Shown: positions 3,183 through 50,882 of the stretch, piece by piece
Layout: every line of letters starts with the position of its first letter
How positions within the stretch are numbered: the first letter of the stretch is position 1
Sequence record: KT184313.1
DNA length: 64,000 nucleotides
From: Enterobacteria phage KhF1
Strand: one strand, 5' to 3'
Notes under the pieces: model-generated
The model's database searches: none
What the model was told of the DNA's origin: nothing
The model's input: the letters and a program-made list of their open reading frames with translations, nothing else
Program-made: the position numbers and the translations under genes

Positions 3183-3190
3183 TCTCTCTT

Positions 3191-3934
3191 TTAAACTTTA
3201 ATGATGGCTCTTAGCTTGTTCTCAAGGTCTGCAAGAGTACCATTATTATGAATAATGTCACGCTCATATTTTGTAGAAATCCCATTTTCTGAAACATGTG
3301 ATGAAACTTTGTCCACATTGTCTCTTTTTACTTCAATAGTTTGGTGTGCAAATCTACTCAGCCATTCAGCTTCAGAGTCAAATCTTAAATCACTGATTAA
3401 GACAAAACCATATTGGTTTCTAAGTGAGCACATTTCATGGAATCTAACCATTCTTTTTTCAAGGTCTTTAGACCAGAACTTGTCGCCCATTACTTTACGG
3501 ACAACTTCAGTACCCCAAACCTGTTGAATTTGTCTTGATGAGAATTTATACTTTTTACTAAACCCCAGACGTGTTAATAGGGTAGGTTTAGCAACCTTCT
3601 TAAGTTCCATGATTAAGCGTCCTGTCAATTCTGACATAAGTTTAAAGTCCATATGGTAACGTTCATCTCTGAAGGTGAACTCCATAGCTTCCGTAACTTT
3701 AAACATCAGTTCAGAGTATGATAAGTCAAAAACCTGTGGAGTCTCTTTAGTTTCACCGTACAGGTCATTCCAAGTCAAGTCAAATATCTTTGATGCAGAT
3801 AGTTTAAGGTTGTCTGCAAAGGCCATTACAGCAACATTGTAGCCATACTCATCCTCTAAGATGTTCTTCACAATAGAACATGAGGTGTCTTTTCCAGAAC
3901 GTGCCTTTCCAGTAAATGCGATAATATTACTCAT
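3191..3934 (-). CDS. P-loop kinase, putative deoxynucleoside monophosphate kinase
   Basis: N-terminal Walker A AFTGKARSGKDT; strong SD AAGGGAGA before ATG; location in nucleotide-metabolism context. Confidence 0.55.
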   Translation of the reverse strand: MSNIIAFTGKARSGKDTSCSIVKNILEDEYGYNVAVMAFADNLKLSASKIFDLTWNDLYGETKETPQVFDLSYSELMFKVTEAMEFTFRDERYHMDFKLMSELTGRLIMELKKVAKPTLLTRLGFSKKYKFSSRQIQQVWGTEVVRKVMGDKFWSKDLEKRMVRFHEMCSLRNQYGFVLISDLRFDSEAEWLSRFAHQTIEVKRDNVDKVSSHVSENGISTKYERDIIHNNGTLADLENKLRAIIKV

Positions 3935-8448: not shown

Positions 8449-8663
8449 CACTTGCAGACGTTATTCAGCAACTTCATGATAACTGCTATACTCCAGAGCT
8501 GATTCAGGAGATGTGCATTGTAGTCATGCCTAGTAGGTTCGTAAAAACCTTTAACAGTGACACTTTAAGGTCTGCACACATTCTTATTGTTGAAGGTAAG
8601 ATTGCAAAAGACCGTACTGGAGTACTCAAAGGTGAACGTATTGATATTCTGGAGTTGCTATGA
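8445..8663 (+). CDS. hypothetical protein
   Basis: ORF track; start moved to ATG at 8445 overlapping previous stop. Confidence 0.4.
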   Translation: MTLADVIQQLHDNCYTPELIQEMCIVVMPSRFVKTFNSDTLRSAHILIVEGKIAKDRTGVLKGERIDILELL

Positions 8664-8795
8664 AGAAAATGTACAGTCTCTGGGGGAGGGTTGGTAAAGG
8701 TTTTGACTGGACACTTCTTCGTTCAAACGTTAAACGTAGTGAATTACCAGAACTCATCACTCACTATTTAAAAACATACAGAGAGGTAGATTATC

Positions 8796-9056
8796 GTGAA
8801 CAATAAGGTTAAGAGTTGTGTGAAAGCAATGGTTGCACTTGGAGTAATTTTTCTGGCTGGCTGTAACCCATCTTATGAAAACAAAGATGCCTCTTACAGC
8901 CTCCCTCCAGAGATGCAAGACTGCAAAATCTACAAACTCAATGGGGATGCTATAAGCAGGGATATTGTTGTTGTCAGATGCCCAAACTCTCAAACAACAA
9001 CATCTTATAGATATGGCAAAAATGGTCAATCACACACTACTGTTATTGATGGATGA
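8796..9056 (+). CDS. putative lipoprotein
   Basis: Signal peptide with lipobox-like LAGC (MVALGVIFLAGCNPS). Confidence 0.5.
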   Translation: MNNKVKSCVKAMVALGVIFLAGCNPSYENKDASYSLPPEMQDCKIYKLNGDAISRDIVVVRCPNSQTTTSYRYGKNGQSHTTVIDG

Positions 9057-9063
9057 GACTAAT

Positions 9064-9270
9064 ATGCAAGTTTTAGTACACTATATCTACTGCTACGATG
9101 TTGTTTATTCCACTGCAACCGTGGCCCAACGTAACCCAATCGTACCGCGAGAAGGTGAATTGGTTCGCATTGAGGGTTGGACTTACACTGTGGAAAACAT
9201 CATTCATAAGTTTGATGTTGCTGGTGATGTTCAAGTTATTGACGTAGAGATTGTTGGTAAGAGAAAATGA
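9064..9270 (+). CDS. hypothetical protein
   Basis: ORF track; start moved to first ATG after upstream stop. Confidence 0.4.
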   Translation: MQVLVHYIYCYDVVYSTATVAQRNPIVPREGELVRIEGWTYTVENIIHKFDVAGDVQVIDVEIVGKRK

Positions 9271-9458
9271 ACAAAGAAGATAAGCATAAAAATGCTGTAC
9301 GGACTCCTGATGGAAAGGTTCAATCCTTCATCCTGACAGTTGGTGGAAAGCCGTTTCGTTGCCACTGCGGAGCAAACTGTTTTCATAAACCAGATAAAAA
9401 TGACTTAGAGCTTTACGCATGTAATGCTTGCAATACTTGGTATCACTCAGAGGATTGA
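9267..9458 (+). CDS. small zinc-finger-like protein
   Basis: CHCGANCFHK...CNACNTWYH cysteine/histidine cluster. Confidence 0.4.
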   Translation: MNKEDKHKNAVRTPDGKVQSFILTVGGKPFRCHCGANCFHKPDKNDLELYACNACNTWYHSED

Positions 9459-9460
9459 TT

Positions 9461-9985
9461 ATGATTGACAATAGGCGCAGAAATATAATCATCAAAAACT
9501 TCCGCGAAGTGTCTCAAAATTTAAGGCTAGATGATGTCAGACTTAGGAAATCTTGGTATGACATGAAGGTATTAGAATATTCTAAAAATCAGCCAATTAA
9601 GTTATCTATCTTAGAACATTGGTATACAAACTTTGCAACACCTGAAAATCATAATAAATTATACAAAAACTATGTAGATGTTTGTAAAAAGCTTGGTGTA
9701 GCAATAGTCGACGACAGTATTGGATTGCTTTATGACCTGTACACAAGGTTCTCTGAATATGCTTTTAATGTTCAGTTCAAGAACTACTTAAAGTATGATG
9801 ATGGTTCATTAAAGTTGTACAACTATGGTTATGGAAAACTAGCCTGCAAACAAGATGATGGTTCTTTTATAGACTTCTACACAGGGGTTTTTGTGTACTT
9901 ACCTGAACAGTGTATGTCACTATCTGATTTAGCAGTCTCACAATTTGGTATCTTTATTCCAGTAAAATCACACATGCTAAGGTAA
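9461..9985 (+). CDS. hypothetical protein
   Basis: ORF track; start moved to ATG at 9461. Confidence 0.45.
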   Translation: MIDNRRRNIIIKNFREVSQNLRLDDVRLRKSWYDMKVLEYSKNQPIKLSILEHWYTNFATPENHNKLYKNYVDVCKKLGVAIVDDSIGLLYDLYTRFSEYAFNVQFKNYLKYDDGSLKLYNYGYGKLACKQDDGSFIDFYTGVFVYLPEQCMSLSDLAVSQFGIFIPVKSHMLR

Positions 9986-33019: not shown

Positions 33020-34126
33020 TTATTCGCCTTTAGCGTCAGCACGAACATCTACCAGCAACTGAGGACGAGTACAGTATGGCAGCATGTAAGAGTGGGCTTC
33101 GAAGTCAATACCTTCGTCACGGTCTTTTTCGTATTCAAATACGTACAGTTCCTGACCAAGTGTATTTGCATAACCCATCTTAGGACATGGGCCATATGCC
33201 ACTTCGAAGATGTTGTTAGCTTCACCCAGCATAGATACGTTAGGGAAAGCATGACCAACACCAACGGTGTCTGCTACGCTGTCAATGCTCACCAGAGTGT
33301 GAACCTTACCACGCTTGTCTTTGAACTTGCCGTTGTACTGGACAAACTTCACACCACCGTAGTAGAAAGTGTTCATGTGAGCCTGAACTCCGTCAGTACC
33401 ACCAGTTCTCAGAGAACCAGTAATCTGTTGCCAAGCCAGTGGAGTCTGCTGTGCAAGATAAGCGTCACGAATCTTAGGATGCTTGGTCAGTTTGCTGAAG
33501 AATACACGGTCAACAACTACGTGAATTTCTTCACCGTTGATTACAGTGCCAGTCTTAGCTTCGTCTTCCATGTGCATACGCAGTTCTTCAATAGAAGCGT
33601 CAATGTCAGCATTAGGGTTGTCAAGGTCGAAGTAAACAGTCTTCTTCTCAACGTCGAACTGCTTGTACAGGTCAGCATACAGAGTACCACGAGCATCAAC
33701 AACTTTACCCTTCAGAGCTTGCATAAACAAGAACTCACGAGTAATATCGAACTTGGTACGAATCTTCATCAGCTTCTTAGCACGTACTACAGCTTCAGTA
33801 GTCAGTTCGTTTGCAGTGCCTGGCTGACGTACACCCTGAATCTCATCAGGAGTAATGCTTTCAACTTCTTTGAAGTACATCATTGGGAAGCTGATTTGAC
33901 GAACACGCTCAGGTGCGCTAGTCTCTGCTTTACGGCTATCACGGTCTACCGCATCAAGCAAGCTAACATCCCAATCAGTCAAGTCCATAAGGAAAGTAGT
34001 TTGGGTGATTGGTGCTGAACGGAACAGACCTAAGTTGGAAATATACCCATAAGTATTTGGGATAGACTGGACTTCACCAGTCAGGTCAGCAAGGAAAAAT
34101 CTGCTTTTTTCAGAATTAGTCAACAT
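33020..34126 (-). CDS. major capsid protein (lambda gpE-like size class)
   Basis: 368 aa, follows decoration and protease genes; strong SD. Confidence 0.75.
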   Translation of the reverse strand: MLTNSEKSRFFLADLTGEVQSIPNTYGYISNLGLFRSAPITQTTFLMDLTDWDVSLLDAVDRDSRKAETSAPERVRQISFPMMYFKEVESITPDEIQGVRQPGTANELTTEAVVRAKKLMKIRTKFDITREFLFMQALKGKVVDARGTLYADLYKQFDVEKKTVYFDLDNPNADIDASIEELRMHMEDEAKTGTVINGEEIHVVVDRVFFSKLTKHPKIRDAYLAQQTPLAWQQITGSLRTGGTDGVQAHMNTFYYGGVKFVQYNGKFKDKRGKVHTLVSIDSVADTVGVGHAFPNVSMLGEANNIFEVAYGPCPKMGYANTLGQELYVFEYEKDRDEGIDFEAHSYMLPYCTRPQLLVDVRADAKGE

Positions 34127-40267: not shown

Positions 40268-40343
40268 TGGAGAATCCGAAGGGACTCGAACCCTTATAAA
40301 CCTGTTTTGCAGACAGGCACATAGCCATTTCTGTCACGGATTC
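40268..40343 (-). tRNA. tRNA-Cys (anticodon GCA)
   Basis: Acceptor GAATCCG/CGGATTC, T-arm AAGGG-TTCGAGT-CCCTT, anticodon loop CTGCAAA, CCA encoded. Confidence 0.7.
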
Positions 40344-40347
40344 AAAT

Positions 40348-40440
40348 TGGAGGAAGATACCAGACTTGAACTGGTACACCGATTTCTCAGCTACTGGCAG
40401 TTTAGCAAACTGCTCCCTTACCTTTTAGGGTTAATCTTCC
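40348..40440 (-). tRNA. tRNA-Ser (anticodon GCT), long variable arm
   Basis: T-arm ACCAG-TTCAAGT-CTGGT, anticodon loop TTGCTAA, about 90 nt. Confidence 0.6.
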
Positions 40441-40441
40441 A

Positions 40442-41176
40442 TTATTTCTGTAATGCGTTCTTCATTTCTGGTGTTGCAATAGTGTCAATCACACCAGTTT
40501 TACAAGCATCATCAAACCAGTCTGGTAAGATACCTGCTAAGAACCCATTGATATTCGTTTTAAGGTACTCTGCAATAAGGGCAGCTTCTTCTTCAATCAT
40601 CTGCACAACTTCATCTGCATAAGCTGTAATCTTTGAGATACCTTCATTAATCTTACTGACAGCTTGGTTAGCTAAATCAGAAACAGTATCAAGACCCTTA
40701 TCAATAGCATCTTGTAAGTCACTTAACACACCATTAACACTATCTAGTGTACTGTTCATCATGTCAATAGCTTTTTGACCATACTCTGTAGCAACACCCA
40801 TAATACCACTGAATGGTGTACAACCAACTTGTTCTCCTGCTGCACCCATAACATTGGAGTATCCCTTTGCTACCTGCATACGTGATGAAAACTCATCAAT
40901 AGACTTTTGACCGTAGTCTGTTAGGGTCTTAGTAGTTGCTGTAGTGCTTGTAAGGCTTGTTGTAAAGCTGTTTAGAAGGACTGTTGTAAGTCCAGCAGCA
41001 ACAAGTTTCTCCTTCATTGTAGGGTCTGTTACAGAGCTAATAGAGCTTACAAGTGATGTAGAAGCAGCTACGGTTCCACCGAGAACTGCTGCACCAGTAA
41101 TAAGTGGGTTAGAGAACCCTTTACCGGTTTTTAAGAGATTAAAAATCTCCTTACCTTGTTCTGTCATCTCTTTCAT
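40442..41176 (-). CDS. hypothetical Ala/Thr/Ser-rich protein inside tRNA cluster
   Basis: ORF track; start moved to internal ATG at 41176 because the annotated start would overlap tRNA-Phe. Confidence 0.45.
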   Translation of the reverse strand: MKEMTEQGKEIFNLLKTGKGFSNPLITGAAVLGGTVAASTSLVSSISSVTDPTMKEKLVAAGLTTVLLNSFTTSLTSTTATTKTLTDYGQKSIDEFSSRMQVAKGYSNVMGAAGEQVGCTPFSGIMGVATEYGQKAIDMMNSTLDSVNGVLSDLQDAIDKGLDTVSDLANQAVSKINEGISKITAYADEVVQMIEEEAALIAEYLKTNINGFLAGILPDWFDDACKTGVIDTIATPEMKNALQK

Positions 41177-41192
41177 TAAGCACCTTTGAAAT

Positions 41193-41269
41193 TGGTAGTC
41201 CAGTGGGATTTGAACCCTCTTCTCATGTTTTTCAGACACGCGCTTTAACCATATAAGCTACTTGGACTA
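41193..41269 (-). tRNA. tRNA-Phe (anticodon GAA)
   Basis: Acceptor pairing, GGGTTCAAATCCC T-arm, anticodon loop CTGAAAA. Confidence 0.6.
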
Positions 41270-41274
41270 TAAAT

Positions 41275-41350
41275 TGGGGTGACCTACGGGATTTGAACCC
41301 GTATAGACCATGTTCACAGCATGGGTCATTACCATTTATGATAAGGCCAC
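41275..41350 (-). tRNA. tRNA-His (anticodon GTG)
   Basis: Acceptor GTGGCCT/AGGTCAC, anticodon stem CCATG/CATGG, loop CTGTGAA. Confidence 0.7.
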
Positions 41351-41381
41351 ATTTAAGGACTCTCGTAAGAATCCTTAGAAG

Positions 41382-41457
41382 TGGCAGCGGCATAAGGATT
41401 TGAACCTTAATAGGACAGCTTCAGAGACTGTTGCATTGCCAGTTATGCTATACCGCT
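41382..41457 (-). tRNA. tRNA-Gln (anticodon CTG)
   Basis: Acceptor AGCGGTA/TGCCGCT, T-loop TTCAAAT, anticodon loop CTCTGAA. Confidence 0.6.
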
Positions 41458-41462
41458 AAATT

Positions 41463-41534
41463 TGGTACTCCATATCGGATTCGAACCGATACATAACACA
41501 GATTTTAAGTCTGGCCTCTCTGCCAATTGGAGTA
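41463..41534 (-). tRNA. tRNA, short and atypical, isotype undetermined (anticodon possibly TAA)
   Basis: Acceptor ACTCCAA/TGGAGT, T-arm ATCGG-TTCGAAT-CCGAT; anticodon arm does not parse cleanly. Confidence 0.45.
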
Positions 41535-41543
41535 ATGGAGCAT

Positions 41544-41618
41544 TGGCGGGGGATGTTGGAATTGAACCAACTTCTTCGATTTCAAAGACCGAGGTTTTAA
41601 CCTTGTAAACTAATCCCC
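41544..41618 (-). tRNA. tRNA-Gln (anticodon TTG), tentative
   Basis: T-arm GTTGG-TTCAATT-CCAAC, anticodon loop CTTTGAA; acceptor pairing imperfect. Confidence 0.5.
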
Positions 41619-41627
41619 TTTAAATCT

Positions 41628-42185
41628 TTACTTTCTCAGTGGATGAATAAAGAATGCCAACATAACTCTTTCCCTTGAGAATGCTCTTTCTTCTGGGACA
41701 ACACTTTTTAGTTTCCATCCAATATAAATTCTCCAGTAAAACTGTTTACCAAAGACTTTAATTGATGGGATAAAGGCGAATAATCCCCAAGCATTACTGT
41801 TCCACATTAGGAGATAACCAGTCTGATTATCTTCAGGGTCAGAACTTACGTTGATATTACCTTTCCACTTAGTAACATCTTTTACATCTCTTCCTAATAC
41901 ATGGTAAGAGAAGTTATAAGCTTTGTTTCTCCAGAGCCATCCGACTCTTTGCATGTAGACGCCTAGTTTACCAATCCATCTAATATTAGCCCATCTTTTA
42001 ACGTGACCTTCATCACCATCAATTGGGTTGTCATATGTCTCCATCCATCTGAACCCGAAAGGTAAGTGTCCTTTCTTCTCACTGTAGAATGGAACTACAA
42101 AAGGTGCTAAGATAACTGCTAAGATTGCTGCAAATGGCTCTAACAAAGCTAAGAAAATCCATGAAACATATTTTAAGTATCTCAT
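41628..42185 (-). CDS. integral membrane protein
   Basis: N-terminal hydrophobic helices WIFLALLEPFAAILAVILAPFVVPF; Trp-rich. Confidence 0.5.
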   Translation of the reverse strand: MRYLKYVSWIFLALLEPFAAILAVILAPFVVPFYSEKKGHLPFGFRWMETYDNPIDGDEGHVKRWANIRWIGKLGVYMQRVGWLWRNKAYNFSYHVLGRDVKDVTKWKGNINVSSDPEDNQTGYLLMWNSNAWGLFAFIPSIKVFGKQFYWRIYIGWKLKSVVPEERAFSRERVMLAFFIHPLRK

Positions 42186-42424
42186 TGTCTAACCCTCGTA
42201 AGGAGGTAAGCATTATTATTTGTTTCTGAGCTTTCTGGTAACATTGTCTCAAAATTGACGCTTTTAAGTTGTCTTCCACCAAAGCAATGACCAATAAATC
42301 TTTCTACTTTTATTGGGTCGCATTCCCATCCGACTTTCAAGAAAATGTGGGTATCTATAGTGGGAACCCTTACAAACTCAATACTATTGGGATTTTCATG
42401 TTCAACGACGATTAATGTTTGCAT
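42182..42424 (-). CDS. hypothetical protein
   Basis: ORF track; ATGA overlap with downstream membrane-protein gene. Confidence 0.45.
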   Translation of the reverse strand: MQTLIVVEHENPNSIEFVRVPTIDTHIFLKVGWECDPIKVERFIGHCFGGRQLKSVNFETMLPESSETNNNAYLLTRVRQ

Positions 42425-42441
42425 AAATTCCTCTTGCTTAT

Positions 42442-42517
42442 CTGGCGCAGGATAAGGGATTCGAACCCCTATTAACAGCTTCGTAGACTGTTGCTCTATC
42501 CATTTGAACTAATCCTG
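42442..42517 (-). tRNA. tRNA-Arg (anticodon ACG)
   Basis: Acceptor GCAGGAT/ATCCTGC, T-arm GGGGTTCGAATCCC, anticodon loop CTACGAA. Confidence 0.7.
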
Positions 42518-42522
42518 CAAAA

Positions 42523-42600
42523 TTGGTGTTCCAAGACGGATTCGAACCGTCACTAGTACAAGGTTTGAGCTTGCATCCTCTGCCAATTGGGATACTGGAA
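42523..42600 (-). tRNA. tRNA with anticodon CAA (Leu-type anticodon on a short-variable-arm body)
   Basis: Acceptor GTTCCAG/TTGGAAC, T-arm GACGG-TTCGAAT-CCGTC, anticodon loop CTCAAAC. Confidence 0.5.
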
Positions 42601-42601
42601 C

Positions 42602-42677
42602 ATGGTACTCACTAAAGGACTTGAACCTTTTTCTTCATCTTGTAAGGGTGATGTTTTACCATATAAACTAAGCGAGT
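42602..42677 (-). tRNA. tRNA-Val (anticodon TAC)
   Basis: Acceptor TACTCGC/GTGAGTA, T-loop TTCAAGT, anticodon loop CTTACAA. Confidence 0.55.
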
Positions 42678-42681
42678 ATGA

Positions 42682-42768
42682 AAGAGGTCTGGAGTTGTGC
42701 CGCTAACTCAACTCCGTGGAATTTGTTACGGTCTTCAGTTGACTCAAAGCGGTCTTTCACTTGACCTC
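42682..42768 (-). ncRNA. tRNA-sized structured element, not a canonical tRNA
   Basis: 7-bp terminal pairing AGAGGTC/GACCTCT encloses a 7-bp hairpin GGAGTTG/CAACTCC; no TTCGA T-loop. Confidence 0.35.
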
Positions 42769-42772
42769 TGAA

Positions 42773-42848
42773 TTGGTGCTCCCACAAGGATTCGAACCCT
42801 GATAAGTTGCTTACAAGGCAACCGTAATAGCCAATTATACGATAGGAG
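42773..42848 (-). tRNA. tRNA-Thr (anticodon TGT)
   Basis: Acceptor GCTCCTA/TGGGAGC, anticodon stem GTTGC/GCAAC, loop CTTGTAA. Confidence 0.7.
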
Positions 42849-42855
42849 CATTAAT

Positions 42856-42931
42856 TTGGAGCATCCAGAGGGAATCGAACCCTCAACCTCAGTTTGGAAG
42901 ACTGTAATTTTCCCGTTTAAACTATGGATGC
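42856..42931 (-). tRNA. tRNA-Gly (anticodon TCC)
   Basis: Acceptor GCATCCA/TGGATGC, T-loop TTCGATT, anticodon loop CTTCCAA. Confidence 0.65.
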
Positions 42932-42936
42932 ACTAA

Positions 42937-43012
42937 TTGGTGGAGTCACTGAGAATTGAACTCAGTTCCCAAGTTTGCAAAACTCGAATTTTAACCATAT
43001 AAACTATGACCC
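42937..43012 (-). tRNA. tRNA-Ala (anticodon TGC)
   Basis: Acceptor GGGGTCA/TGACTCC (G3-T70 wobble), anticodon loop TTTGCAA. Confidence 0.65.
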
Positions 43013-43018
43013 CAATGT

Positions 43019-43095
43019 TTGGTACAGGTGGAGGGAATTGAACCCATCGTCTTACTGATTAAGAGTCAGCCGCATAACCATTTTGCTACACCTGC
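43019..43095 (-). tRNA. tRNA-Lys (anticodon CTT)
   Basis: Acceptor GCAGGTG/CACCTGT, anticodon stem GCTGA/TCAGT, loop CTCTTAA. Confidence 0.55.
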
Positions 43096-43101
43096 ATTAA
43101 T

Positions 43102-43180
43102 TTGGTGGGAGACAAGGGATTCGAACCCTCAAACACCAACTTCTAAGGATGGTAGGTTTACCAATTACCGTCAATCTCCC
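43102..43180 (-). tRNA. tRNA with anticodon TAG (Leu-type anticodon on a short-variable-arm body), tentative
   Basis: Acceptor GGGAGAT/GTCTCCC, T-arm GAGGG-TTCGAAT-CCCTT, anticodon loop CTTAGAA. Confidence 0.45.
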
Positions 43181-43438
43181 ATTAAATCTTTTTAGAGAAC
43201 TTCTAAGAACCTAAGCAACAAGGTTCCACAACAAGCTGTAATAACCTTAGAAGCCCTCTAAAAAGACCTAAAAAGGTCTTTGCATAGTCTTGTTTAATCC
43301 GGTGACTAGAACCTTTGGAGAGCTTGATATTATCTCTTCTCCGTGACACCTACTAGGTGCTTTACTGTGCGTGTACGACAATACACGAGGGATACCAAAG
43401 CAACATCCGAATGAAGCTTGGCTTTAAAATCTTATTAG

Positions 43439-43526
43439 GCGGTAAGTAAAGGAGTCGAACCCTCACCGTATCTCTACAGTGGCAACAGTTTTCAAGACTG
43501 TTTGGCTGCCATTAGCCGCTACCTAC
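43439..43526 (-). tRNA. tRNA-Ser (anticodon TGA), long variable arm
   Basis: Acceptor GGTAGGT/ACTTACC, anticodon stem ACAGT/ACTGT, loop CTTGAAA, about 88 nt. Confidence 0.6.
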
Positions 43527-43539
43527 CCCTAATAAGACT

Positions 43540-43622
43540 TTGGCATGGGACGGAGGAGTTGAACCCCTTTGAAACGGTTTTGGAGGCCGTTGCTCATGCC
43601 TTAGAGTCTTAACATCGTCCCA
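43540..43622 (-). tRNA. tRNA, atypical; possibly tRNA-Trp (anticodon CCA) with extended D region
   Basis: Acceptor GTGGGAC/GTCCCAT, T-loop TTCAACT, candidate anticodon loop CTCCAAA; about 8 extra nt in D region. Confidence 0.45.
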
Positions 43623-43774
43623 CACTATAATTCGAAGCTTACCCTATTATCTCAACACTGTAAAGCCCCTTCTCAGATTATTTACATGTTCTGGAAAACA
43701 TGAGATACAGACCACCTCCCTACAGGAAGACCCGCTTAGGTCGTATAAGTAATCTGCTAACTATTTGGCACACC

Positions 43775-43842
43775 CTACAGGATTCGAACCTGTAACTAAC
43801 GATTTAGAAGACCGTTGCTCTATCCAATTGAACTAAGGGTGC
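43775..43842 (-). tRNA. tRNA-Arg (anticodon TCT)
   Basis: Acceptor GCACCCT/AGGGTGT, T-arm ACAGG-TTCGAAT-CCTGT, anticodon loop CTTCTAA. Confidence 0.65.
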
Positions 43843-44088
43843 ATTAATCTTTAAAGACTCTCTTAGAAAGCCCTTAAAGATGCCCACCTTATTAATCATA
43901 CCGTGGGCGAGTACGCCAAATTCTTTGATGAGGGATTGGAAGACCTCACTGGTGTTTAGCCTATCAAGCTACTGCCAGAAAAACATTGTCGTTTGCATTT
44001 ATTTTAAATTTGCAAAATAGACGCTACGCAACGAAAACTAAGGTTACTATAAAGTGGTCACATCTCAATGTCAACAACTTTATTGAAA

Positions 44089-44164
44089 TTGGTACTGGTA
44101 GGTGGAATCGAACCACCGATGTTCCCTTATCAGGGGAGTGTTATAACCTTCTTAACTATACCAG
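44089..44164 (-). tRNA. tRNA-Ile (anticodon GAT)
   Basis: Acceptor GCTGGTA/TACCAGT, T-arm GGTGG-TTCGATT-CCACC, anticodon loop CTGATAA. Confidence 0.7.
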
Positions 44165-44165
44165 C

Positions 44166-44243
44166 TTGGAGGTTCAGATGGGAATCGAACCCACATTCAT
44201 AGGGCTTATGAGACCCTTGCATTACCTTATCTGCGACTGAACC
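44166..44243 (-). tRNA. tRNA-Met (anticodon CAT), copy 1
   Basis: Acceptor GGTTCAG/CTGAACC, anticodon stem AGGGT/GCCCT, loop CTCATAA. Confidence 0.65.
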
Positions 44244-44246
44244 ATT

Positions 44247-44322
44247 TTGGTAGAAGTGGAGGGATTCGAACCCATCGCCTGTCAGATTAAAAGTCTGCCG
44301 CATCACCATTCTGCTACACTTC
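44247..44322 (-). tRNA. tRNA-Lys (anticodon TTT)
   Basis: Acceptor GGAAGTG/CACTTCT, T-loop TTCGAAT, anticodon loop CTTTTAA. Confidence 0.6.
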
Positions 44323-44325
44323 CAT

Positions 44326-44469
44326 TAAATTATCTTTGTAGATAAGCTACCCAGACTTGCTTAAGGTCTGTAGCGATGTGCCTTGTTGGGTTTAAATCTA
44401 GAATTTACCCTTTCACCCTTTGTGGTCGCATACTCACAGGTAAGCTTAATAACTTATCTACAAAGATAA
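44326..44469. repeat. 19-bp perfect inverted repeat pair (AATTATCTTTGTAGATAAG) enclosing about 106 nt
   Basis: Arms at about 44326-44344 and 44451-44469 are exact reverse complements. Confidence 0.6.
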
Positions 44470-44470
44470 T

Positions 44471-44602
44471 TACCAGACCGTTGTTTATCATCTTAAGTGC
44501 TACCATTACACCAACTCGACATCTGCCGAGTGAAGGAATCGAACCTTCGCCTTTTCTTTACCGAGAAATAGATTGTTTAAGTTTTGCTGTAAACGGTCTT
44601 CT
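44471..44602 (-). ncRNA. tRNA-like domain in permuted (Y RNA-like / YrlA-like) arrangement inside a long closing stem
   Basis: On minus strand: T-arm GAAGG-TTCGATT-CCTTC, acceptor-like 7-bp helix ACTCGGC/GTCGAGT capped by a 4-nt loop, D-arm GTGT-AATGGTA-GCAC, CTTAA/TTAAG helix, outer stem AGACCGTT/AACGGTCT. Confidence 0.45.
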
Positions 44603-44615
44603 GTAAATTTGTTGA

Positions 44616-44691
44616 GCCAGACCAAGTTTTAAATTTTTCAAAATTAAATTGGCTTGAAATTTTCATACGTTCTTGCTGTATTTGGTCTTCT
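44616..44691 (-). repeat. spacer hairpin element, family member 2 (CCAGACCAA ... TTGGTCTTCTG)
   Basis: Same conserved arms and TTGCTGTA block as 44471..44602 but AT-rich interior. Confidence 0.5.
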
Positions 44692-44752
44692 GCTCCTTTA
44701 AAGGATACTCGTAAGAACCCTTTAAGGGAGGGGCTAAATAGCCCTCTCAAAA

Positions 44753-44829
44753 TTGGCGGCTACGATGAGACTTGAACTCACATCATCTCCCGTGACAGGG
44801 GAGTATTTTCTCCAGTTAAACTACATAGC
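44753..44829 (-). tRNA. tRNA-Asp (anticodon GTC)
   Basis: Acceptor GGCTATG/CGTAGCC, T-loop TTCAAGT, anticodon stem CTCCC/GGGAG, loop CTGTCAC. Confidence 0.7.
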
Positions 44830-44834
44830 CTTTA

Positions 44835-44922
44835 TTGGTGTGCCGTGTAGGAGTCGAACCTACCGAGTCTCAATGACAAGGGATTTACAGTCCCCACCGC
44901 TACCATCTACGGGATAACGACA
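44835..44922 (-). tRNA. tRNA-Tyr (anticodon GTA), long variable arm
   Basis: Acceptor GTGTCGT/ACGGCAC, T-arm GTAGG-TTCGACT-CCTAC, anticodon loop CTGTAAA. Confidence 0.65.
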
Positions 44923-44930
44923 CATTTAAT

Positions 44931-45007
44931 TTGGCGGTTAGTCAGGGATTCGAACCCTGTGCCATTCGCTTAACAGGCGACCGCACATACCTTATGTGCT
45001 TCCTAAC
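44931..45007 (-). tRNA. tRNA-Asn (anticodon GTT)
   Basis: T-arm CAGGG-TTCGAAT-CCCTG, anticodon loop CTGTTAA. Confidence 0.65.
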
Positions 45008-45020
45008 CATGTTTAGTATT

Positions 45021-45085
45021 ACCAGACCGTATATTTCAATTTTTTCCGCTAAAAATTTAATAAATATTGCTGTAAACGGTCTTCT
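45021..45085 (-). repeat. spacer hairpin element, family member 3 (CCAGACCGT ... AACGGTCTTCTG)
   Basis: Conserved arms and TTGCTGTAAACGGTCTTCTGTAAA block. Confidence 0.5.
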
Positions 45086-45091
45086 GTAAAT

Positions 45092-45167
45092 TTGGAGGCG
45101 GGTGCAGGAGTCGAACCTGCCGATACCATGCTAATGAGACATGTGAGACGCCCTTTCTCTATACCCG
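45092..45167 (-). tRNA. tRNA with anticodon CAT, copy 2 (initiator, elongator Met or Ile2 undetermined)
   Basis: T-arm GCAGG-TTCGACT-CCTGC, anticodon stem CATGT/GCATG, loop CTCATTA. Confidence 0.6.
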
Positions 45168-45179
45168 CAATTCTTAATG

Positions 45180-45251
45180 ACCAGACCAAATATCTTCTTT
45201 GTCCGATTAACTTTCAGATGAGTAGATTAAGTTTGCTGTAATTGGTCTTCT
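45180..45251 (-). repeat. spacer hairpin element, family member 4 (CCAGACCAA ... TTGGTCTTCTG)
   Basis: Conserved arms and TTGCTGTAATTGGTCTTCTG block. Confidence 0.5.
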
Positions 45252-45258
45252 GTCAAAA

Positions 45259-45336
45259 CTGGCGTTCCAGAAGGGATTTGAACCCTCAAATATCCACTTT
45301 GAAAGAGTGGTGACTTTACCATTTTGTCTACTGGAA
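45259..45336 (-). tRNA. tRNA-Glu (anticodon TTC)
   Basis: Acceptor GTTCCAG/CTGGAAC, anticodon stem CCACT/AGTGG, loop CTTTCAA. Confidence 0.7.
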
Positions 45337-45343
45337 CATTAAT

Positions 45344-45423
45344 TTGGTCTCCGTTGAAGGATTTGAACCCTCGACCCCTTGCTCCCAAAGCAAGTGCTGC
45401 TAAACCAAACTGAGCTAAACGGA
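45344..45423 (-). tRNA. tRNA-Pro (anticodon TGG)
   Basis: Acceptor CTCCGTT/AACGGAG, anticodon stem CTTGC/GCAAG, loop TTTGGGA. Confidence 0.7.
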
Positions 45424-45542
45424 GATAAACTTTTCAAACTCTATGTAACCACTTTAACATTATTTTTTAGTGATTGTCAAGAACTTTTTTAAAATATTTT
45501 TCAGTATCTTAGAAAAGCTCTCATTTCGTTTCTATGTAGAAC

Positions 45543-45589: not shown

Positions 45590-47005
45590 TTACCAGATAT
45601 AACGGTCAATCATTACTGCTTTGAGCATTACACTGATTGGGTCAAACTTCTCACCACCAAGCAGAGCTTTTAAAGTGGCTGGAGAGAACCCTGATACCAT
45701 TGCTACACCGTTATCCTTAACAGATACTTCGCAAGTACCATTACGGTTTGCTAAGTACCAGAATACCAGTTGTGGCATCTCATATCCAGCTTTTTTGTAC
45801 TTACTCTGAATTGCTTCAAAGTTTGTACGTCCGTTAGCTCCATCAACCTGATTGAACTCCATATCGGAGAAGATGATAAGCTTACTTGGCATATCTTTCT
45901 GAGTCAAGTTGTTTCTTTTACCTGTTTCAAGAATGCGGTCAAAAGCTGCTTGTAAGTTAGTTGAGCCATATTCAACGTGTCGCATCACCTGACGATGACG
46001 GTTTCGTAAATCACCACTCAATTCGATGAAATGAGGGTTTGTTGAATAAACCATTAACTCGTTCTTAAAGCAACCTGTATTGCGTTCTGCTACATACAAG
46101 GCAAGGGATACACCAATATCAAGGGCAGTGATTGAACCAAGATTCACCCAAGACATTGAGCTTGAAACATCAGTCATACACAGGATGTTTTCACCTTCTG
46201 CCATCCAGTTTGGTAGTGCTTTCCACTGCTCATTAGCAACATCTGCATTACCATACTTGATAGATTTAATCACATCGTATGGATAAACAGCACCAGCATT
46301 AATCTTAGTCTCGCCCTTTGATAAGGACTCAATGTAAGATTTGTAGCGTTCTCCATCTTTACGGTTAAAGAGTTTTTGGTAACGTGCAGCAGCAAGTGAA
46401 GGAATCTTACTGTAGTCGATATTACCAAACTCATTAGCAGAGATTTTTTGTTCAACTGTATCAGATAGTGCAGACAGCAGTGTGCGGTACTCTTTCTCAC
46501 TCAAGTTTGCAAACTTGCAGAAACGTTTTACAAACTGTTTGTGACGTGGTTTTACTCGTGGTAACCACTTAGCTGCTAAACCTGCTGTTGCAGGGTCTAG
46601 TAATGCTGCTTCTAAATGTTTGAAGGCATCTGTCTCGAAACGAGTACCTACAAAGATTTTGAAGTCATCAAAGCGACCAAGCTCTGCAATCTTATCCATA
46701 ATGCGAAGAACCTGCGTAGGTTCTAAAACTTTATCTTCAATCGCTTGAAGTAAAACAGTTCGGAAAGCTTTACGCTCACCCATACCTTCTCGTACATCTC
46801 GCATATGCAGTAAAATACGAACTGCAACATCAACATCCTCATGCAAAGCTTTGTATAACAAGTCTGGTAAGATTTCTACATTGCTACGGCTGGAACCAGC
46901 AGCTTTGTAAAAGTCCACAAGAGCAGACATTGATGAAGTATGGTTTACAGCACCATTTTCAGTTCGACCTGCATGAAGGTGCGCATGTTTAAATAATTCG
47001 CTCAT
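45590..47005 (-). CDS. von Willebrand factor A (MIDAS) domain protein with N-terminal helical domain
   Basis: MIDAS-like DVSSSM (DxSxS) at about residue 275 and downstream IIFSDMEF; N-terminal 270 aa unassigned. Confidence 0.65.
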   Translation of the reverse strand: MSELFKHAHLHAGRTENGAVNHTSSMSALVDFYKAAGSSRSNVEILPDLLYKALHEDVDVAVRILLHMRDVREGMGERKAFRTVLLQAIEDKVLEPTQVLRIMDKIAELGRFDDFKIFVGTRFETDAFKHLEAALLDPATAGLAAKWLPRVKPRHKQFVKRFCKFANLSEKEYRTLLSALSDTVEQKISANEFGNIDYSKIPSLAAARYQKLFNRKDGERYKSYIESLSKGETKINAGAVYPYDVIKSIKYGNADVANEQWKALPNWMAEGENILCMTDVSSSMSWVNLGSITALDIGVSLALYVAERNTGCFKNELMVYSTNPHFIELSGDLRNRHRQVMRHVEYGSTNLQAAFDRILETGKRNNLTQKDMPSKLIIFSDMEFNQVDGANGRTNFEAIQSKYKKAGYEMPQLVFWYLANRNGTCEVSVKDNGVAMVSGFSPATLKALLGGEKFDPISVMLKAVMIDRYIW

Positions 47006-47086: not shown

Positions 47087-47458
47087 TTATTTTTTAAGAG
47101 TCGCTACAGCAGAGAACGTTGGTTTGTTATCTGTCTGAGGTTGACCACCGTTATCAGGGGTCTTCTTAGTGTCTGCTGCAATTGCTTTCATCTCACCTGC
47201 TGAGTGAGTCATGATAGTTTTACCAACTTCAATCATGCTCTTGATGGTTACGTCATCTGTGTTTAACCCGAACTCTGCAAGCTTAGCAGCATCCCTTGTA
47301 ACAATCGCTTCAAATAACTTTGCAGCAAACTCAGCAGAATTGTCAATGGTCAGTTGAGCTTTTACAAGTGAGCTTTTGTTGCGAGAGCCTTTTGGTCTTC
47401 CAGATGGGTTTCCAGATTGGCCTTTTTTAAACTGGCCTTTGTTTGTTCTGTTTTTCAT
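47087..47458 (-). CDS. small basic protein
   Basis: N-terminus GQFKKGQSGNPSGRPKGSRNKSS; first gene of minus operon that includes the vWA protein. Confidence 0.5.
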   Translation of the reverse strand: MKNRTNKGQFKKGQSGNPSGRPKGSRNKSSLVKAQLTIDNSAEFAAKLFEAIVTRDAAKLAEFGLNTDDVTIKSMIEVGKTIMTHSAGEMKAIAADTKKTPDNGGQPQTDNKPTFSAVATLKK

Positions 47459-48077
47459 TGGTATGCCTCTTATAAGACCTCTTAAAAGGCTTTTAAGATA
47501 AAAGATAGATATCCAGAAAGATATCTGTTTAAATAGCCTTTTTAGAGGAACCTTTTAAGTTATCTTCTAAGTATTTATAAGCCTACACCTTGTCAAGTAC
47601 TTTGTCAACAACTTTTTTAACTTGCAATAGTTCTTGACTTGTTGTATGGATTACTGTACCATCTTACTTAAAGCTGTAGGTCTGCCTTGTTCTACAAAGG
47701 AGACTTAATGAGAAAATCAAATAACCCGAAGAAAGGTAAAAATACCAATCACTGTAAGGAATCAAAAAGGGTAGAGTTACTCTACTATTCATCCTCTGAA
47801 ATTGGTCTGTACCTGTTCTTTCAAAATTACAGAAGACAAGAGGATTATCTATGTGTAGTTCCCAATTAGAAATCGCAGATATTATAGATTTATATAAAAC
47901 TGCAAAGAGTCATGGCTATATAACCTCAATTGGAAAGAATAGTCACTACGATGCTTTGACTGGAATGTATTTCAGGGCAATGGCTCAATCTAGTGAACAA
48001 CACTTAATGGTTTCTTCCAGTGAGTTTACTTCGTTTCTCTATTGCAGCAAAATCATAAATCGCAGGAGAACTGAAAA

Positions 48078-48668
48078 ATGTTAACAGTAAGTTTTAATTA
48101 CAATAGTGATGGCTCTGTATCAATTAATTCACCATATGCAAATGACCTGCTTAAAGAGCTAGTCAATCAGTGTGATAGAGGTCTTCACTATGTTCAAAAT
48201 TCTTTTAAACAGAAGACTATTGCTAATAACTTGATGCGTGTAACAGTGACGCCATCGAATCCAAATTATGACTTTGATAGTGAAAGTCCGTACTCATTAG
48301 TTGCGCTTGGAGAGAGCAGCCAATTCAAACTTGTTTGCCACGACTCAGAAACATTTCTTAAGGTATTTTCCAACCTTATCCATAATAATAAGTACAGCTA
48401 CGTTGATGGTAGTGTAAACTTCTATCCAGCAAACTATACATGTTTGTTGGTTGATAATATGAGAAAAAGTAAGCAAGAACCTACAGAAATTTCATTTGAT
48501 GTGAACTCTAGTCCAGACGCAGAAACAAGTAAGAACTTCGATATGAGTTACGCATTGTCACTCAGTAAGAAATCCGAGTTCATTGATTATGTCAATGGAT
48601 TTGGTTTTAAGTTTGATGAGAGTATGAATCTTAAAAAACTTAAGAACCTACTTAAGACCAAAGCTTAA
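48078..48668 (+). CDS. hypothetical protein
   Basis: ORF track, 196 aa; terminator-like hairpin downstream. Confidence 0.45.
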   Translation: MLTVSFNYNSDGSVSINSPYANDLLKELVNQCDRGLHYVQNSFKQKTIANNLMRVTVTPSNPNYDFDSESPYSLVALGESSQFKLVCHDSETFLKVFSNLIHNNKYSYVDGSVNFYPANYTCLLVDNMRKSKQEPTEISFDVNSSPDAETSKNFDMSYALSLSKKSEFIDYVNGFGFKFDESMNLKKLKNLLKTKA

Positions 48669-48677
48669 GTGTGAATA

Positions 48678-48700
48678 GGGGCTGATGCCCCTTTAACTAT
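48678..48700 (+). terminator. rho-independent terminator (weak)
   Basis: GGGGC-tgat-GCCCC hairpin then TTTAACTATTT. Confidence 0.45.
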
Positions 48701-48715
48701 TTATAAGGATATTTA

Positions 48716-49087
48716 ATGAAAGCTAAGAGTGCAAAAGACTTTTATTGCTTCCTACAATCCTATATCAATTCCGTGCAAAATGGTGAAAGGTACAACCTTA
48801 ATGATGTTATCCCGACACCTTTGACATGGAGACTAAGTAAATGGCCTGAAGAAGATATTACACCAACAATCGAACAACGCACCTACAAACCCGAAATCAA
48901 TATTCCAGACTCTGAGAATCTATTATATCCAATGTTCCATATTGTTGGTCTTGGAAGATTCCTTATGGATATTCAGTATGTAATTGGTAAAGGTTATAAG
49001 GTTAAAGGTATTGTTGTTGGTGATGTATCTCCGCATCACAAAGGTTATTTTAGACTAAACGCACATTTAGAGGCTAAAAAGAAATGA
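48716..49087 (+). CDS. hypothetical protein, paralogous to N-terminal domain of the next gene
   Basis: Shares conserved positions with 49084..49968 product (KAK..DF, RY, WPE.DI, YKP, LLY, FMDLQY.I..GK). Confidence 0.5.
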   Translation: MKAKSAKDFYCFLQSYINSVQNGERYNLNDVIPTPLTWRLSKWPEEDITPTIEQRTYKPEINIPDSENLLYPMFHIVGLGRFLMDIQYVIGKGYKVKGIVVGDVSPHHKGYFRLNAHLEAKKK

Positions 49088-49968
49088 TTAAAGCAAAGAC
49101 TTACCCAGACTTCAAAGAGTTTGTGAAGGGCTTCATTGCAAACGTAAAGGCTGGTAAGAGGTATGATTTTAGAACATATCAAGAGGCTATTTTACCACTT
49201 ACCTATAGCTCGTATTGGCCTGAAGCTGATATTGCAGAAGTTGAGAAGTTTGACTATAAACCAGACTATAAAGTTCCTTTTAGTGATGAACTCCTTTACA
49301 GTGTTGGTGCACAGATGAGAACTGCTGATTTCTTCATGGATTTGCAGTATGCAATCATCAATGGTAAAGATGTTGACACTATTTACTGTGAATGGTTGGC
49401 AAGAGTTAAGCCGTTCTCAATGTTGAATGCTAAGCTGAAGGATGCTATCAAGCCACCAGCAATTACTCAGCAACCAACAGGTCAAACAGTCAATGAGGGT
49501 GGCACACTTACCCTAAGCATTCTAGCAACTAACGCCACTGGATATCAGTGGAAGAAGGATGGTGAGGATATCCCTAGTGCCAATTCTGCAACTTACACAA
49601 AACAGTCAGTAGCACCTTCTGATGCTGGTTCATACACTTGTGTTGTATCTGGAGAGGGTGGAACAAGTGTTACCTCAGATGCAGCAACAGTGACTGTGAA
49701 TGCACTTCCAGTAATCACTCAACAGCCAACCAATCAAGAAATCACTGAAGGTGAAACCTTAACGCTGAATGTTGTGGCAACAGGTGCGACAGGTTACCAG
49801 TGGAAGAAAGGTGAGGAAGACATCCTCGATGCAACTACTGCAACTTACACCAAAGAAGGTGCAACCGCTGCTGATTCAGGAAGCTACACCTGTGTAGTGA
49901 CTGGTGCAGGTGGTTCTGTAACGTCTAATGCTGCAACAGTTACTGTTAACCCAGCAGGGGAGGCATAA
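49084..49968 (+). CDS. protein with N-terminal paralogous domain and two tandem Ig-like domains
   Basis: Two ~85-aa repeats each with GYQWKK...ATYT...GSYTCVV (Ig I-set-like strand pattern). Confidence 0.6.
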   Translation: MIKAKTYPDFKEFVKGFIANVKAGKRYDFRTYQEAILPLTYSSYWPEADIAEVEKFDYKPDYKVPFSDELLYSVGAQMRTADFFMDLQYAIINGKDVDTIYCEWLARVKPFSMLNAKLKDAIKPPAITQQPTGQTVNEGGTLTLSILATNATGYQWKKDGEDIPSANSATYTKQSVAPSDAGSYTCVVSGEGGTSVTSDAATVTVNALPVITQQPTNQEITEGETLTLNVVATGATGYQWKKGEEDILDATTATYTKEGATAADSGSYTCVVTGAGGSVTSNAATVTVNPAGEA

Positions 49969-50432
49969 TGCAACTCTCAAGAAAAGGTTTAGAAGCTATT
50001 AAGTTCTTCGAAGGTCTTGAGTTAGAGGCTTACGAAGACTCTGCCGGAATCCCAACAATCGGGTATGGTACAATTCGTATTGACGGAAAACCTGTTAAGA
50101 TGGGAATGAAAATCACCGCTGAACAAGCTGAACAGTATCTTCTCGCGGATGTTGAGAAGTTTGTTGCAGCAGTGAACAAAGCTATCAAGGTTCCAACTAC
50201 TCAGAATGAGTTCGATGCACTTGTAAGTGAAACATACAACATCGGTATCACAGCTATGCAGGATTCCACATTTATCAAGCGCCACAATGCTGGTAATAAG
50301 GTAGGTTGTGCAGAAGCTATGCAGTGGTGGAACAAGGTTACAGTCAAAGGTAAGAAGGTCACTTCAAACGGTCTTAAAAACAGACGTAGGATGGAAGCTG
50401 ACATTTATCTTGACAGTGTATACCCAAAGTAA
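49968..50432 (+). CDS. endolysin, T4 lysozyme family (GH24)
   Basis: N-terminal FEGLELEAYEDSAGIPTIGYGT catalytic Glu/Asp/Thr signature; about 154 aa. Confidence 0.8.
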   Translation: MQLSRKGLEAIKFFEGLELEAYEDSAGIPTIGYGTIRIDGKPVKMGMKITAEQAEQYLLADVEKFVAAVNKAIKVPTTQNEFDALVSETYNIGITAMQDSTFIKRHNAGNKVGCAEAMQWWNKVTVKGKKVTSNGLKNRRRMEADIYLDSVYPK

Positions 50433-50442
50433 TATCTTCATA

Positions 50443-50470
50443 GGCTCCTTCGGGAGCCTTTTTTATTTTC
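50443..50470 (+). terminator. rho-independent terminator after endolysin
   Basis: GGCTCC-TTCG-GGAGCC hairpin followed by TTTTTTATTTT. Confidence 0.75.
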
Positions 50471-50483
50471 TAAGGAGAAAACT

Positions 50484-50882
50484 ATGAAACTTTGGGCTAG
50501 TGACTTTGGAACTTTTAAGTACACTCGTAATGGCTCGCTTGTACGCATTGTAGGAAACAATGTGGTTTCAAGAGGCGACAAGGTATATACACGGTTTACT
50601 GTAGAACTTGTTGAATTGTCACCTATTGAGTCTGTGAACAATGGCCTGTTCAAGTTTGAGACTTACAATGTCAACGAACATGGACAATTCAACCCTCTTG
50701 GTGAAAGTGGACTTGATATTATTTCAGAGCACCCATTGACAAAAGAGCAACTCGCAAGTTATTATAAAACTGTTCTGGAAAGGCAGTTAGCAACACATGA
50801 ACAAGAAGCTAACTATCATTTACAACATTGCGAAGCTTTAAGAGCAAAAATAGAACAAGCAGAGAGAGGTTTTTATGAATAA
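50484..50882 (+). CDS. hypothetical protein
   Basis: ORF track; AGGAGA SD. Confidence 0.45.
   Translation: MKLWASDFGTFKYTRNGSLVRIVGNNVVSRGDKVYTRFTVELVELSPIESVNNGLFKFETYNVNEHGQFNPLGESGLDIISEHPLTKEQLASYYKTVLERQLATHEQEANYHLQHCEALRAKIEQAERGFYE

Follow-up and report, generated by a model that had tools for sequence, protein, structure and literature searches.

The 64,000-nucleotide stretch of Enterobacteria phage KhF1 DNA analyzed here (sequence record KT184313.1, referred to as the window) carries on its plus strand two tandem open reading frames (ORFs) that an initial annotation had singled out as paralogs, the second of them extended by immunoglobulin (Ig)-like domains, and our analysis places them at the same positions, 48716..49087 and 49084..49968. 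The first encodes a protein of 123 amino acids (aa) with a predicted isoelectric point (pI) of 9.1, and the second a 294-aa protein that we identify as the hexamer decoration protein Hex-Dec, which is made up of a capsid-binding domain (CapBD) at the N-terminus (aa 1-120, 49084..49443) followed by two Ig-like repeats of the I-set/Ig_3 type (aa 124-207, 49453..49704, and aa 208-291, 49705..49956). The Hex-Dec stop codon overlaps the start of an endolysin gene (TAATG, position 49968) on the same strand, a glycoside hydrolase family 24 (GH24) phage lysozyme located at 49968..50432 (Pfam PF00959 Phage_lysozyme, E=4.5e-41), and the Ig gene does therefore sit directly upstream of the lysozyme, as had been claimed. 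Over bases 48000-50500 the identity is 99.9% to Enterobacteria phage KhF2 and 80-97% to ~250 other Felix O1-like phages, and we therefore assign the window (G+C ~39%) to a Felixounavirus genome (Ounavirinae).

A PDB sequence search matched the 294-aa product, from residue 1 to residue 290, to two solved chains, namely 9ncf_S from Bas63 (Escherichia phage JohannRWettstein; ‘Immunoglobulin-like domain protein’, E=1e-247) and 9c2d_S/9c3a from Shigella phage Sf14 (‘Tail protein’, E=1e-167), and its CapBD and the modelled portions of both align residue for residue. Cryo-electron microscopy (cryo-EM) of these two phages assigned the N-terminal ~118-120 residues as a CapBD docked in monomeric form at the centre of pentamer-adjacent (quasi-three-fold) hexamers, whereby 60 such hexamers of the T=9 capsid carry Hex-Dec and the facet-centre hexamers are without density (PMC12609058, PMC11821841). 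The CapBD is composed of two pseudo-symmetric lobes (PMC12609058), the hexamer centre is Asp-lined and acidic, and in Sf14 the residues Arg79 and Arg107 form salt bridges with Asp221 of the major capsid protein (MCP) (PMC11821841). Both arginines are present in the 294-aa product (alignments A1 and A3), as is D221 in the window MCP, the predicted docking partner of the CapBD (368 aa; 33020..34126, minus strand), which is near-identical to the solved MCPs (9ncf_A, E=7e-248; 9c2d_A, E=1e-233). In addition, the Felix O1 ortholog gp36 was detected by mass spectrometry in virions purified on caesium chloride (CsCl), with 14 peptides and 44% coverage (PMC3185647). Close homology to solved structures, taken with published proteomics, establishes the predicted product of the 294-aa gene as the hexamer decoration protein of the Ounavirinae (Hex-Dec; gp20 in Sf14, gp36 in Felix O1), and from the Bas63 and Sf14 reconstructions and the Felix O1 virion mass spectrometry we infer that it would occupy the centres of pentamer-adjacent hexamers in KhF1 as well.

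The two tandem Ig-like repeats proposed in the initial annotation were recovered by Pfam Ig_3 (80.5 bits), Ig_2 and I-set, each above its gathering score and each over two stretches, and Big_2 was not among the Pfam matches of this protein. The repeats share 67% identity (E=2e-36) and are seen at the protein level only, as the Ig units were not picked up as a tandem repeat in the DNA by Tandem Repeats Finder (TRF). Going by the solved homologs, the two I-set domains would project outward from the capsid as a flexible fibre; in the Bas63 and Sf14 maps the Ig domains are flexible and unresolved, and a Hoc-like function is the proposal of the authors (PMC12609058, PMC11821841). For KhF1 a Hoc-like role in adhesion or environment sensing may likewise be supposed. 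Hex-Dec length varies widely among relatives (EC6, 210 aa; window, 294 aa; Sf14, 372 aa; Bas63, 460 aa), and the display modules attached to the CapBD are interchangeable, the phages of E. coli, Salmonella and Shigella having one to four copies of I-set Ig and those of Erwinia having Big_2. One metagenomic relative has a single CapBD protein at the Hex-Dec locus with a Lys/Ser-rich tail and no Ig domain, and the 209-aa protein cluster P0053 has a frameshift inside Ig repeat 1; truncations inside the Ig-coding repeats seem to be common.

Of the three functions that had been considered for the Ig protein, only that of a decoration protein with a gene distant from the head genes is borne out by the cryo-EM homologs and the Felix O1 virions. 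The gene does lie outside the structural module, since the MCP gene is ~15 kb away on the opposite strand with a 26-tRNA cluster and a divergent promoter region intervening. A non-structural adhesin finds no support, given that the protein is a virion component, and neither does a lysis-associated factor. No transmembrane segment was predicted in either protein (maximum Kyte-Doolittle(19) 1.04 in Hex-Dec and 1.14 in the 123-aa paralog), and the putative holin of Erwinia phage Coenus is a separate downstream gene, and on these grounds we rejected a lysis cassette component (holin, spanin or antiholin). The order Hex-Dec then endolysin is kept in Erwinia, Hafnia and metagenomic relatives, and the adjacency of the two genes is simply ancestral synteny across the Ounavirinae, a functional link being without support from any evidence. 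We also rejected the tail location implied by the ‘tail protein’ label of GenBank and PHROG 3995, as the homologous chains were deposited in the capsid reconstructions 9NCF and 9C2D. This label stands in most records (‘HK97 major tail subunit’ in Felix O1), and the KhF2 record KT184314 leaves the 294-aa Hex-Dec ORF (8594-9475) unannotated. Both the mislabelling as a tail protein and the distance of the Hex-Dec gene from the structural module (>10 kb) have already been published (PMC12609058). An Ig protein outside the head module and beside the lysin is therefore explained in the literature, and the 123-aa paralog is the sole unexplained part of the locus.

The similarity of the 123-aa product to the N-terminus of its neighbour, the other main claim of the initial annotation, is far beyond chance: BLASTP aligned the two with 38% identity over 101 aa (E=1e-16), and each matches the PHROG family of the other, the 123-aa product belonging to phrog_4463 (function unknown). 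The same protein is found as gp37 in Felix O1, gp21 in Sf14, bas63_0125 in Bas63 and agp126 in SUSP1. By sequence its only PDB relatives are the two Hex-Dec chains (E=6e-12 for 9ncf_S, residues 3-117, and 2e-11 for the other). An AlphaFold2 (AF2) model made with 20 diverse aligned sequences reached a predicted local distance difference test (pLDDT) of 78 and a predicted template modelling score (pTM) of 0.77, and was used instead of a model from a 9-sequence alignment (pLDDT 58). A Foldseek search with this model returned no PDB entries besides 9c2d_S (TM 0.78) and 9ncf_S (TM 0.76) and, from BFVD, nothing but Ounavirinae proteins, and no similarity to other families was found in Pfam, NCBIfam, PDB or BFVD. 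Since Hex-Dec chains and Ounavirinae proteins are its only matches by sequence and by fold, we identify the 123-aa gene as a free-standing copy of the Hex-Dec CapBD whose predicted fold is kept.

The paralog ends at residue 123 without an Ig-like domain (orthologs are 122-124 aa long), and its residues at the MCP contact positions differ from those of Hex-Dec. Every paralog examined has Gly at the Arg79 position (VGLG motif), and at position 107 the window has His and most paralogs have Gln, Arg being confined to the divergent metagenomic copy P0055. The β-hairpin loop that bears R107 in Hex-Dec is one residue longer in the paralog and nearly invariant (DVSPQHKGY), and Lys109 is invariant in both families (close-relative alignment A1). 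With a C-terminus of KKK the paralog is basic (pI 9.1), versus a predicted pI of 5.5 for the Hex-Dec CapBD and 4.6 for full Hex-Dec. We therefore file it as an anchor-only variant rather than as a decoration protein, as it has the fold but neither the Ig domains nor Arg79 and, by the literature, is not found in virions. Such a tandem anchor-only paralog appears not to have been described in the searchable literature: the Bas63 and Sf14 cryo-EM papers make no mention of it upstream of Hex-Dec (PMC12609058, PMC11821841), and the Felix O1 paper does not note the paralogy of gp36 and gp37 and leaves gp37 hypothetical (PMC3185647).

A full-length paralog is present in ~232 of the 252 in-group phage records and the Hex-Dec CapBD in all 252, and the paralog is therefore never found without Hex-Dec. 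The outgroup Ounavirinae, namely Erwinia phage Coenus, Hafnia phage SarahDanielle and Salmonella phage PMBT37, have a like gene order with a single Hex-Dec and no paralog. A divergent 87-kb metagenomic phage has genes for proteins of 195 aa, 122 aa and 298 aa followed by a lysozyme, the paralog showing 45% identity with zero gaps and the Hex-Dec 54% identity. A profile search of 1.84 billion representative proteins yielded only 13 clusters at E<=0.001, making the CapBD a small and lineage-restricted family. Identity of the paralog to in-clade Hex-Dec CapBDs is 34-37%, versus 19-30% to outgroup CapBDs, and on a neighbour-joining distance tree it sits on a long branch whose placement is not decisive. 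Given this identity pattern, and since Erwinia and Hafnia phages lack the paralog, the simplest reading would be a tandem duplication of the anchor within the enterobacterial clade followed by faster divergence; an older origin with subsequent loss is the alternative, which we do not favour.

Nei-Gojobori ratios of nonsynonymous to synonymous divergence (dN/dS) across Felixounavirus, Mooglevirus and Suspvirus orthologs were 0.07-0.19 for the paralog, 0.03-0.09 for the Hex-Dec CapBD and 0.07-0.12 for the endolysin. Both halves of the paralog are constrained, the C-terminal half more so, and these low ratios show it to be a functional gene under purifying selection across at least four lineages. 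Its synonymous divergence (0.46) is higher than that of the flanking genes (0.13-0.38), which suggests that this small gene may have undergone mosaic exchange.

Loss of the paralog has nonetheless occurred, as phages Z31, REP9, vB_CECAV_041 and fKMPT1 share one ~220-bp deletion in the gene that removed the start codon and left a 190-nt remnant, and Hex-Dec is intact in three of these four. In Shigella phage Z31, Hex-Dec is split by a frameshift just past the CapBD (405-nt and 168-nt ORFs; 2806-3570), beside the paralog remnant. Both genes were scored ‘Not Fit’ in the CRISPRi-ART screen of SUSP1 (paralog agp126, -0.91, p=0.74; Hex-Dec agp125, -0.39, p=0.72), and the paralog is dispensable, at least in the laboratory. 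Dispensability and loss in one lineage would also be expected of a decaying duplication remnant without function, an explanation that is effectively refuted and that we hold to be highly improbable, since dN/dS remains at 0.07-0.19 at a dS of ~1, the length of 122-124 aa is kept without indels down to 45% identity, the start codon and Shine-Dalgarno sequence are retained, and truly dead copies, namely those of Z31 and its relatives, are recognizable by the deletion, a lost ATG and frameshifts.

Paralog and Hex-Dec are joined by a short junction (49070..49087, plus strand) in which the GAGG Shine-Dalgarno sequence for Hex-Dec sits inside the 3' end of the paralog and the stop and start codons overlap as ATGA. 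Sequence comparison found both elements in all six lineages compared, which suggests that the translation of the two genes may be coupled. In Felix O1, ORFs 36 and 37 were both assigned to the late class by RT-PCR (reverse transcription PCR) (PMC3185647). The 3' end of the paralog also contains the heptamer T_AAA_AAG (49075-49081), at which a -1 slip would enter the Hex-Dec frame past an upstream TAA. AAA_AAG is shift-prone in E. coli, being the frameshift site of dnaX, and with Hex-Dec in the -1 frame relative to the paralog the geometry would fit a programmed frameshift that fuses the two into a double-anchor product. Such a fusion is barely credible to us given that the heptamer is not conserved, Sf14 and Moogle having GCTAAGAAATGA and SUSP1 and EP1 having GCTAATAAAAATGATTAA, that Felix O1 gp36 is listed at its unfused predicted mass of 31.6 kDa (PMC3185647), and that the solved chains begin at Hex-Dec residue 1. 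As a conserved mechanism it is ruled out by the divergence of the heptamer in other genera, for which reason we consider the T_AAA_AAG to be probably a by-product of the Lys-rich C-terminus.

Translational coupling, and hence roughly stoichiometric co-production, would suit a paralog that serves as a dedicated partner or chaperone, engaging acidic Hex-Dec (or the CapBD portion) in the cytoplasm so as to mask the capsid-binding face until mature capsids exist. The two proteins carry opposite charges (pI 9.1 for the paralog versus 4.6 for Hex-Dec and 5.5 for its CapBD), the two pseudo-symmetric CapBD lobes could permit homotypic pairing, and the paralog is both tied to Hex-Dec in its distribution and absent from virions. 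We find this role rather unlikely, however, because Hex-Dec is kept intact in paralog-deleted phages and in outgroup phages that never had the paralog, and therefore requires no chaperone, and because the divergence of the paralog is not matched by any change in the Hex-Dec CapBD.

Published data argue against the paralog being a stable part of the virion. The Felix O1 ortholog gp37 is absent from a list of 17 virion proteins, though proteins of 9.7-13.7 kDa were detected (PMC3185647), the main text of the VpaE1 study implies that the paralog is not among the 22 virion proteins of that phage, and Sf14 and Bas63 encode it, yet their maps show only Hex-Dec at hexamer centres (PMC11821841, PMC12609058). 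It could still be an overlooked minor decoration protein, a plug devoid of Ig domains on the 20 facet-centre (true three-fold) hexamers or on portal-proximal ones that lack Hex-Dec, considering that it shares its fold with a hexamer-centre anchor, that Hex-Dec leaves exactly one hexamer class empty, that the altered contact residues could fit the shifted Asp221 geometry reported for facet-centre hexamers (PMC11821841), and that a distant relative encodes an Ig-less CapBD protein at its Hex-Dec locus. Nevertheless, two cryo-EM studies of paralog-encoding phages report the other hexamers to be without density, and gp37 went undetected in a Felix O1 virion proteome in which smaller proteins were found, making a minor decoration protein distinctly unlikely. 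Just as improbable in our view is that the paralog acts as a gatekeeper, transiently filling hexamer centres in procapsids or on the 20 facet-centre hexamers and thereby contributing to the 60-of-80 occupancy and to when Hex-Dec is loaded; the cryo-EM papers attribute this occupancy solely to hexamer conformation (PMC12609058, PMC11821841). Were the gatekeeper explanation true, Hex-Dec copy number or distribution would be altered in deletion mutants or in natural phages that lack the paralog (REP9, fKMPT1).

Taken together, the 294-aa protein is Hex-Dec by close homology and the 123-aa protein an anchor-only paralog of it, and we hold the explanation as a whole to be likely. As to how the paralog acts, our tentative preference is for a non-virion or transiently bound accessory head protein that modulates the loading of Hex-Dec. 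On this model the paralog would be produced late and together with Hex-Dec as a basic anchor domain, and its conserved basic loop would still target it to the acidic hexamer centre. Binding would be weak, or restricted to one capsid state such as assembling or unexpanded shells or hexamers free of Hex-Dec, and the paralog would then modulate when and where Hex-Dec loads without decorating the mature particle. Hints of capsid targeting are the conserved DVSPQHKGY loop and K109 in a net basic protein versus an Asp-lined hexamer centre, the constant association with Hex-Dec, and the Ig-less CapBD at the orthologous locus of a distant relative.

Several points weigh against this accessory role. 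With the Arg79 contact lost in all paralogs, hexamer-centre binding may be absent, and the paralog evolves ~2x faster than the Hex-Dec CapBD. Two paralog alleles (~85% identical) occur within Felixounavirus, giving a bimodal identity across the 252 records, and the Hex-Dec CapBD is 100% identical between the window and EC6 despite the divergent paralog alleles adjacent to it; divergent alleles beside an unchanged CapBD are unexpected for a binder of a highly conserved partner. The Felix O1 RT-PCR timing is semi-quantitative and places the co-transcribed endolysin in another class (PMC3185647). The proteomes that speak for its absence from virions are old or filtered, the Felix O1 list having used a coverage cut-off of >=25%, and so small a protein, were it bound to the 20 three-fold hexamers, could have its density blurred by icosahedral averaging or be stripped off in CsCl. 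Finally, false negatives are acknowledged for CRISPRi-ART, in which the endolysin, too, was ‘Not Fit’.

The lost Arg79 contact and the switched net charge would suit a paralog recruited to a capsid-unrelated role, for example the binding of a host factor or service as a decoy for a host system that senses head proteins. Its faster evolution and the two alleles in one genus suggest an arms race or mosaic exchange, and it is non-essential on laboratory strains. Against such a role stand the lack of any positive selection signal (pN/pS <=0.5 everywhere), the lack of likeness to other families in Pfam, NCBIfam, PDB and BFVD, and the strict linkage to Hex-Dec, and we regard it as unlikely.

The paralog, Hex-Dec and endolysin genes form a transcription unit that is closed by a strong intrinsic terminator-like hairpin and T-run at 50442..50459 (plus strand), found in our scan and annotated as a terminator in KhF2. 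At the other end, 24 nt 5' of the paralog start codon, lies the hairpin GGGGCTGATGCCCC followed by a T-rich tract (48678..48691, plus strand). Its conserved G+C stem, GGGGC-N4-GCCCC, is also found in Sf14, Moogle, EC6, SUSP1 and EP1 (Felixounavirus, Mooglevirus and Suspvirus) with a loop that varies (CTGA, CGAA, CTAA). Whichard 2010 listed this hairpin as a rho-independent terminator (PMC3185647); a strict terminator scan did not call it, and we take it for a weak terminator or attenuator between the upstream 196-aa gene and the paralog. No sigma-70 promoter was found in the 24 nt available between hairpin and paralog start, and promoter-like sites are located further upstream (47602-47662). 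As there is no room for such a promoter, the paralog and Hex-Dec genes must be reached by read-through or from an unrecognised late promoter.

The 196-aa protein itself (phrog_4034; 48078-48668, plus strand) is encoded directly upstream of the Hex-Dec locus in all Ounavirinae lineages that we examined, those lacking the paralog among them, and no Pfam or PDB relative of it was found. A T4 Inh-like identity, raised by a faint precomputed Phage_Inh_N label on a distant homolog, was rejected after hmmscan of 7 members did not reproduce it. Further upstream and on the minus strand is a gene for a 123-aa DUF5681 protein (47087-47458), whose SUSP1 ortholog (agp130) is among the only 19 genes that CRISPRi-ART scored as ‘Fit’, and beside it a gene for a 471-aa protein (45590-47005) whose Sf14 counterpart is annotated as a DUF2828 ‘RNA-binding protein’. 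The latter adjoins the 26-gene tRNA cluster (40268-45424, minus strand) that separates the structural genes from the divergent promoter region.

In practical terms, these findings correct the annotation of the Ig protein, and the finding of the paralog is incremental rather than a new kind of system. Felix O1-like phages are, however, used in diagnostics, biocontrol and therapy for Salmonella and E. coli, and hexamer-centre anchors such as Hoc and pb10 serve as display platforms. Engineered fusions could meet competition from a natural, conserved and free-standing anchor made together with Hex-Dec, or have their loading regulated by it, and the anchor and paralog pair provides a simple system for learning how decoration proteins choose among quasi-equivalent hexamers.

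Among known systems the closest is that of Bas63, also a Felixounavirus, whose neighbourhood contains the same 196-aa gene, 123-aa paralog, Hex-Dec and endolysin, and whose Hex-Dec (9NCF chain S) is near-identical to that of the window over CapBD residues 1-123 and shares the I-set Ig repeats. Bas63 has four Ig domains versus two in the window, which is within the range of one to four already described (PMC12609058). Sf14 gp20 (9C2D/9C3A chain S), from a Mooglevirus, is an ortholog with a CapBD 86-88% identical to ours, conserved R79, R107 and MCP Asp221, and three Ig domains, and Sf14 gp21 is 77% identical to the window paralog. The Felix O1 proteins gp36 and gp37 are direct orthologs of the pair, gp37 being 99% identical to the window paralog and gp36 having been called a ‘major tail protein’ (PMC3185647).

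More distantly, T5 pb10 (5LXK, 8ZVI) resembles Hex-Dec in binding at hexamer centres and in its N-to-C order of CapBD and then Ig-like domain, with an Ig match of E=2e-12. The similarity is limited to the Ig domain (query 128-207), homology between the CapBDs was not detected, and pb10 is reported to occupy all 120 hexamers, versus one hexamer class for Hex-Dec. T4 Hoc is likewise a non-essential monomer of the hexamer centre, in which a small capsid-binding domain carries several Ig-like domains in a row, and the PHROG ‘Hoc-like head decoration’ families match Hex-Dec over its Ig part only (residues 120-292, 3.4e-28). Hoc is not known to have an anchor-only paralog. In Hoc the capsid-binding domain is C-terminal and follows the Ig domains, the reverse of the order in the window, and it is topologically distinct with minimal sequence similarity (PMC12609058). 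Hex-Dec therefore works like Hoc without being its ortholog.

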